DNA of 58,173 bases from Nemertoderma westbladi (Eukaryota > Animalia > Xenacoelomorpha), in contig JAUCBJ010005115.1 in the NCBI GenBank assembly GCA_032718475.1, positions 1 through 58,173 on the forward strand, written 5' to 3'. A program made the position numbers and the translations under genes. Shown piece after piece: positions 1,854-3,054 of this stretch (the stretch's first letter is position 1; the number at the start of each line of letters is the position of its first letter). The notes beneath the pieces are model-generated. The model saw only the letters and a program-made list of their open reading frames with translations. It ran no database searches and was not told the DNA's origin.

Positions 1854-3042
1854 TGTAAAAGCTTTTGCGGATATAACCAGTCATTTTCTCCGCACTGTAC
1901 CGTGTAGGTGCTTTTAGCGGACATAACTAGCCATTTTACCGTAATTCGCTTAATACTCTAAAGACTGTAACTCAGATGACGAAATCTGTCAGCTGATTTA
2001 ATGCCAGCGTGGAGCTTTCTTTGTTCTTTGTTCGGCTCGCTCGACCAATCAGAGCGATTTTCACTTTGTGTTGACCAGTGCATACAGAAACCCACCCAAT
2101 TCAGTCAGTGTGTATCTTTCTAAGCCCAGAACACCGGCTTAGGATTCTTCTGTACTTCTGTGGAAGTTTCAGACTTTGACCTAAACATCAGAAACATCAG
2201 ATGGCTTTGATTAAAGGAACGTAAAACTATTAACGCAGCACACCGCCACATCGCGGCATTATGCAACTCAATTCAACTACTGAATCATTGCTGAATCATA
2301 CTTCATATCTGAATCGCCACACCGCGGCACTACGCAACGCGATTCAACTACACATACTGACTGTTCACCGCATTATTTGATTCTGTTATTAATTGGTGTT
2401 ACTGTGTTATGTTGGTACATATTGCTGATACATTTAGAGAATACCGATGAATAATCATAAAACCCTCAATCTCTTTGATTACTAAAGGTTAGAGGAACAG
2501 GTTTACCAGTAGCAACTGCGACTTACATTATAGTGGTTTTTGTGTGAATTGAATGCTATTTAATAATCCCTACATGTGTCAGTTGCGATCCTCCTTATAT
2601 ATGATCAAATTCAGTGACGGTCGGCAGATCAGTGCGCAGTAGTGTGAAGTAGTGTGAAGTCGTGTGAGGTAGTGTGAAGGTTAATAAAGCATCTCCTAAA
2701 GAATGCGCCTTTTACGAAACTCAGTAGCCATCCAGTTGTGATTAGTATAAGTCATAACTCTGTTTTCATACTTAAAGCGCCACGTCCTAAAGGAACTGTT
2801 AATATTTCCCCGAAAGTAAATATATTGTCAGAGATTATATATTAACGATCAATCGAATAATACAGTAGGTCTACACTGCAATCACTATCAAAGCATCCGA
2901 ATCCAGTCTCCCTTAACTGTGGGTGAATGGTCGCGCACAGGCTGGCTTCGGCTGATGTACCTTCAGTACATTAAATAATTGATATACAAAAAGACACCTA
3001 AAATTGGCAGGTTAAACTGCTAAAGGTCTAAAAGCGCGAACA
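1854..3042 (+). repeat. 5' LTR (1189 bp)
   Basis: Direct repeat of 12540-13769 with roughly 25-30 substitutions plus a few indels by eye. Contains CCAAT (about 2045), a (GTAGTGTGAA)x4 repeat (about 2639-2679) and AATAAA (2683). Confidence 0.95.
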
Positions 3043-3054
3043 TTAATAGTTTTA
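3043..3054 (+). promoter_or_regulatory. Non-tRNA primer-binding-site position; candidate self-priming PBS
   Basis: TTAATAGTTTTA directly follows the LTR, with no TGG. It is the exact reverse complement of TAAAACTATTAA at 2222-2233 inside the LTR. Confidence 0.55.

Follow-up and report, generated by a model that had tools for sequence, protein, structure and literature searches.

The LTR retrotransposon at positions 1854-13769 of the DNA analyzed here (a stretch of 58,173 nucleotides from Nemertoderma westbladi, contig JAUCBJ010005115.1, hereafter the window) was found to carry, directly after its 5′ LTR, a 12-nt sequence that is the exact reverse complement of a segment of its own LTR. This single, non-autonomous BEL/Pao element probably primes minus-strand DNA synthesis with a piece of its own LTR RNA, as judged from this complementarity and by analogy with Tf1. 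Taking its distant relatives into account, we lean slightly towards the broader view that a large part of BEL/Pao self-primes without a tRNA, mostly by means of LTR exons joined by the spliceosome, the window copy being the intron-free form with an 809-nt loop. The feature is most likely a self-primer of the Tf1 kind, which would place a known mechanism in a superfamily described as tRNA-primed.

The features delimiting the element are collected in Table 1. The two LTRs are 97.9% identical (1155/1180 aligned bases), and this identity, together with the intact ends, the polypurine tract, and the target-site duplication, indicates that the copy went through reverse transcription. No second copy of the LTR element was found within the window. 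Close to the start of the LTRs, a 49-bp unit (1861-1927; 12547-12680) has one more copy in the 3′ LTR than in its 5′ counterpart. The loop between the putative primer and its binding site is lengthened by a 10-bp tandem repeat at 2638-2679 and by a 37-bp stretch matched at 2244 and 2315. From one sequencing run (X1, assembled contigs, share 0.08), 577 contigs were placed, covering many parts of the element; 2170-2489 received no coverage, and 3034-3065 was thinly covered. A loose X1 contig end at 3046 was left out; it could be the flank of another LTR.

Table 1. Positions in the window of the features of the BEL/Pao element.
Feature	Position	Strand	Remark
5′ target-site duplication AGTCA, 5 bp	1849-1853	+	left target-site duplication
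5′ LTR	1854-3042	+	TG..CA, 1,189 bp, ends GAACA
Candidate self-primer	2222-2233	+	exact complement of 3043-3054
Candidate polyadenylation signal AATAAA	2683-2688	+	sequence motif
Second candidate polyadenylation signal ATTAAA	2970-2975		5′ LTR
Primer-binding-site (PBS) position	3043-3054	+	without TGG; A/T at 11/12 bases
Three open frames upstream of Gag	4620-5126, 5127-6041, 5990-6544	+	split by stop and frame change
670-aa frame, Gag, protease, and RNase H tail	6651-8663	+	ends at in-frame stop
Post-RNase H region	8664-9200	+	weak match to last integrase residues, E 0.23
Long AT-rich 3′ internal region	9201-12531	+	two frames, 10883-11344 and 11931-12446
Polypurine tract GGGAGCGG	12532-12539	+	adjoins 3′ LTR
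3′ LTR	12540-13769	+	1,230 bp, TG..CA
Candidate-primer copy in 3′ LTR	12958-12969	+	identical to 2222-2233
3′ target-site duplication AGTCA	13770-13774	+	right target-site duplication

The presence of BEL/Pao genes, recognized in the earlier note from the letters of the DNA, was borne out by the domain analysis. The Gag encoded by the 670-aa frame matched PF03564 (DUF1759) with an E value of 4e-8 and contains three Cys-His motifs; it is followed by an aspartic protease (DSG near 7983; Pfam match below the cut-off) and, directly after the protease, by a Pao-type RNase H tail. Longer homologues of this frame contained PF05380 (Pao RNase H) and PF18701 in 7/7 matches. Alignment with the full-length homologue P0001 showed matches to residues 40-612 and 1174-1314, with residues 613-1173 unmatched. 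The reverse transcriptase, most of RNase H, and the integrase core are missing from the window element, and the remnants stand in the order protease, RNase H tail, integrase tail; owing to this loss, a helper element would be needed. The first two frames upstream of Gag gave zero Pfam matches, and all three gave zero tblastn matches in the 83 BEL/Pao loci described below. The two frames of the 3′ internal region, with zero matches in Pfam or the 83 loci, are possibly an extra gene of the element's family.

Among the features expected of BEL/Pao, the TG..CA LTRs with a short target-site duplication and a polypurine tract, and the DUF1759 Gag with triple Cys-His motifs followed by an aspartic protease, were all present, and the 18-nt PBS for a tRNA 3′ end of the ICTV description was absent. 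A quick Gag-protease tree of 77 rows placed the element on a long, unplaced branch, and it was therefore assigned to no BEL/Pao subclade. The protein searches revealed no close relatives, the best alignments showing 24-32% identity; one further protein search yielded matches over short stretches, with a single protein below 1e-30. Viral contigs gave zero matches by protein or by the LTR-end/PBS pattern.

The sequence TTAATAGTTTTA at 3043-3054 is the exact reverse complement of TAAAACTATTAA, which occurs within the window at 2222 and 12958 only. Sequence comparison thus confirmed the perfect 12-nt complementarity and its retention in the 3′ LTR, both previously noted, and the end of the 5′ LTR in GAACA was likewise found without a TGG after it, none occurring in the next 33 nt. 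The orientation is the one required for self-priming: base 2233 would pair with 3043, so that a 3′ end there would extend straight into the LTR. With 12 nt at offset 0, the match falls within the sequence rule for detecting self-priming given in the available text of PMC6317226 (a complement of 10 nt or more, placed 0-5 nt past the LTR).

It is unlikely that the match arose by chance in AT-rich DNA, with the true primer site being different or lost in this copy, and this is the alternative that survives best. Such an origin is favored by the composition of the PBS (A/T at 11/12 bases), by the length of the loop, by the absence of the helix from folding predictions of longer RNA, and by the fact that a single copy with deletions is at hand and many windows were scanned. 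When LTRs were simulated with Markov models (20,000 each, orders 1-3), a match at offset 0 had a chance of 0.00045-0.00075, and one anywhere within offsets 0-5 a chance of 0.0017-0.0025. Shuffled PBS sequences equaled the 12-nt match in 3/200 cases in one test and 3/2000 in another, and 5/9,485 internal 12-mers of the element have a complement in the LTR. The rough figure of 1 in 1000 offered in the earlier note was therefore about right (~0.0005-0.003 computed), and a probability this low at a position set in advance argues against chance. So do the absence of any alternative primer, spliced or contiguous, at offsets up to 12 in the window LTR and the same kind of match in 14/14 relatives.

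An extension of the helix by G2221:U3055 and by pairing of CGC with GCG had also been suggested. RNAduplex did predict it, at -18.5 kcal/mol, but other, unrelated windows of the LTR reached -19.5 and -19.4 kcal/mol against the same target, so that the extension is not above chance. The CGC:GCG pairing was rejected as evidence; the analogous pairing in relatives had a permutation P of 0.64.

For comparison, 83 BEL/Pao loci were drawn from metagenomes and genome bins (79 from the best 80 of 444 confirmed, plus 4), and seven more regions were added to them. A direct repeat ending inside the contig was found in 17/83 loci. L023, which duplicates L024, was dropped, as were L048, L079, and L081 with their unresolved ends; L094 was added, giving 14 relatives with the LTR end set by two LTR copies, all of autonomous type with a full BEL/Pao Pol. 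These 14 are partly non-independent, L003, L018, and L025 forming one clade and L080 and L094 being near sisters from one bin. Six of the seven extra regions (L095-L100, from bin G002) lacked an LTR pair and thus provided no tRNA-primed positive control. The contigs L080 and L094 (full-length, bin G001) and L095-L100 lie inside bacterial genome bins, where they are probably host contamination.

TGG was present within 5 nt of the LTR in 0/14 relatives. All 14 instead carried, 0-4 nt after the LTR end, a 10-15-nt complement to their own LTR, which was equaled by at most 1/300 shuffles; the reversed control gave at most 8 nt. The complement is contiguous in two relatives (L033, 11 nt; L074, 10 nt). 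It exists in the other 12 (L003, L018, L024, L025, L028, L049, L061, L065, L069, L075, L080, and L094) only across a putative GT..AG LTR intron of 72-451 nt with a canonical donor and is 11-15 nt long. These loci point to a candidate mode in which removal of an LTR intron would join two exons into a splice-made primer. The first splice test demanded GT and AG only, taking in L023 and leaving out L094; its donors were GTAAG in 10/12 loci and GTACGT and GTGAGT in the other two, with shuffle P values of 0-0.03. The stricter filter used for the 14 relatives was set after the GTAAG donors had appeared.

Specificity of each PBS for its own LTR was evident from the cross-comparison, in which matches of at least 10 nt between the PBS of one element and the LTR of another were confined to three related families; the window PBS had a longest match of 8 nt to the LTRs of 14 other elements. 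Three changes distinguish L080 from L094, each matched between exon end and PBS (TAA at the exon end goes with TTA in the PBS, and CAC with GTG). When 51 other loci were scanned blind and scored for the spliced form alone, complements of at least 11 nt appeared in 14, vs. 0 in the reversed control; 5 of these 14 are copies of already counted families. There was no match of 10 nt in 36/51 loci, many of which have short upstream DNA. Further contiguous complements were found with inferred LTR ends in L042 (15 nt) and L004 (11 nt). Offset 0, as in the window, was seen in L069 (fixed end) and in L030, L067, L076, and L079 (inferred ends). Judging by these sequence patterns, self-priming looks widespread in the BEL/Pao superfamily. 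A TATA-like motif lies 26-33 nt before the primer in only 3/14 relatives; the lack of a clear TATA box about 30 nt before 2222, pointed out earlier and upheld by zero TATA-like motifs in the 60 nt upstream, is therefore not unusual.

No GTAAG donor or pyrimidine-rich acceptor like those of the relatives is present in the window LTR, and a splice-made primer was rejected for the window element, its best spliced match being 7 nt (9 at offset 10) vs. 12 nt contiguous. Identity between the protein of the window element and those of these relatives does not exceed 30%; given this distance and the long, unplaced branch, the evidence from the relatives applies to the window copy by analogy. The loop between primer and PBS is 809 nt in the window copy vs. 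45-219 nt in the 14 relatives, i.e., 3.7 times the longest of them. The AU-rich duplex of the window copy has a computed energy of -8.8 kcal/mol, compared with -7.7 to -17.1 kcal/mol in 16 relatives, and is the second weakest of the 17 computed. The predicted pairing in the window was 0.48-0.59 for an RNA ending at 3070; it dropped to 0.04 or less with an end at 3090 and to 0.0 in longer RNA, folding models of a 900-nt RNA being unreliable; in the same test, four contiguous relatives kept at least 0.78 in 19/20 folds. The suggestion of self-priming in the earlier note thus gained from the same kind of pairing in 14/14 distant relatives, and the helix did not appear in the simple folding model of longer RNA. 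With its contiguous candidate primer, the window copy belongs to the plainer examples, and as a test case it is weaker than the relatives; the splice-junction primer of the relatives, absent from the window copy, is a stronger result than the 12-mer of the window copy.

Long-range pairings of the 5′ region are common in retroelement RNAs. This speaks for the explanation that the pairing is real but structural, serving packaging, dimer formation, or translation control, while another RNA primes. We consider it quite improbable, since the pairing lies exactly at the primer-binding position in the window element and 0-4 nt from the LTR end in 14/14 relatives, and leaves no tRNA site. No tRNA genes were found within the window, and an Rfam search of it gave zero matches at threshold, with two sub-threshold miRNA matches only. 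The run of A/T at 11 of 12 positions is unlike a nuclear tRNA stem, which counts against a host RNA as primer. Priming by an internal tRNA fragment or other host small RNA, like the half-tRNAs described for some Copia lineages in the available text of PMC6317226, is the least probable alternative of all, as the PBS letters vary by family and track each LTR, which would not be so with a fixed host RNA.

Under the preferred reading, self-priming from the LTR, the transcript would begin at 2222 or upstream of it, by analogy with Tf1. Nucleotides 2222-2233 would then pair with 3043-3054 of the same RNA or of another copy packaged with it; given the 809-nt loop, it is plausible that two co-packaged RNAs pair or that Gag assists. 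Cleavage by the RNase H of the helper would, as in Tf1, fall at the 3′ end of the duplex, either after 2233 or after 2230, the latter giving an AT end like that of some relatives. Primer 3′ ends are AC, AT, or ACT in 14/14 relatives and AA in the 12-nt register of the window, so that a cut after 2230 fits better than one after 2233. The reverse transcriptase of the helper would extend the primer end into U5. The primer may be copied back into the plus strand, so that the match would be renewed in each cycle, and this would explain the element-specific covariation.

Among the closest precedents is Tf1, in which annealing involves the first 11 bases and RNase H cleavage falls between bases 11 and 12 (available text of PMC7175516 and PMC4600332). 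Tf1/Tf2 of Schizosaccharomyces pombe, Tj1 of S. japonicus, and the Tf1/sushi and Tcn1 chromoviruses are likewise without a tRNA PBS and have, as in the window, an 11-12-nt LTR segment complementary to the PBS position. All of these belong to Ty3/gypsy, whereas the window element has a BEL/Pao Gag and RNase H tail and an 809-nt loop and is non-autonomous. A further difference is the intron-split candidate primer of most BEL/Pao relatives. Membership of the window element in Tf1/sushi (Ty3/gypsy Gag-Pol, chromodomain integrase) was rejected because its protein matches are to BEL/Pao. According to the accessible portion of PMC6317226, self-priming is also predicted in Tcn1 and Copia TAR; for the TAR lineage of Ty1/copia (Houba, Osr-1), the prediction rests on the same sequence rule under which the window element falls. 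TAR elements are plant Copia and have no protein relationship to the window element at this level.

The window element resembles Belpaoviridae (Semotivirus, e.g., Tas) in its three-Cys-His Gag, protease, Pao-type RNase H tail, short polypurine tract, and animal host, and its LTR size lies at the upper end of 0.2-1.2 kb. The ICTV account, in its accessible part, gives Belpaoviridae an 18-nt PBS for tRNA-Arg or tRNA-Gly and calls their replication poorly understood (PMC8742986), and a tRNA-Tyr PBS is given for Achilles, a BEL/Pao element of the olive fly, in the available text of PMC4580426. In contrast to these descriptions, a tRNA PBS is absent from the window element and 14/14 sampled relatives; the ICTV-described feature thus does not hold across the family. 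No report of BEL/Pao self-priming was found in the accessible part of the literature searched, and an earlier remark is possible in subscription journals, Repbase, or GyDB. The available text of PMC3601003, PMC554778, PMC3118150, PMC8220671, PMC13524379, and PMC5443660 contained no mention of it, and that of PMC3118150 and PMC554778 contained no PBS statement.

Several other features were observed in the window. Positions 1-1465 contain a long inverted repeat, with arms 90-96% complementary, around a 203-aa frame (616-1227) with zero Pfam matches; we take this unit to resemble a Penelope-type element. The right flank of the LTR element adjoins a non-LTR retrotransposon fragment at 13755-14225 (-), a second such fragment lying at 24095-24529 (-); their endonuclease and reverse transcriptase matches are both below the Pfam cut-off. 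A frame at 25861-26469 with an Ion_trans_2 match (E 2e-14) probably represents one exon of a gene for a two-pore potassium channel. A satellite of 168 copies of 64 bp with 97% matches extends over 29455-40309, and more tandem arrays are located at 17405-17922, 26539-27579, 42583-47541, 49269-50519, 54553-55051, and 55388-56960.

The start of reverse transcription in BEL/Pao is assumed to be tRNA-primed, and self-priming, if true, would correct this description for many families. It would be an independent case in addition to Tf1/sushi and Copia TAR. BEL/Pao would then be the third superfamily of LTR elements to self-prime, and the first in which splicing makes the primer. Self-priming would also explain why PBS finders based on tRNAs would miss such elements. 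Through the splice-junction form of the relatives, the replication of retrotransposons would be linked to splicing by the host.
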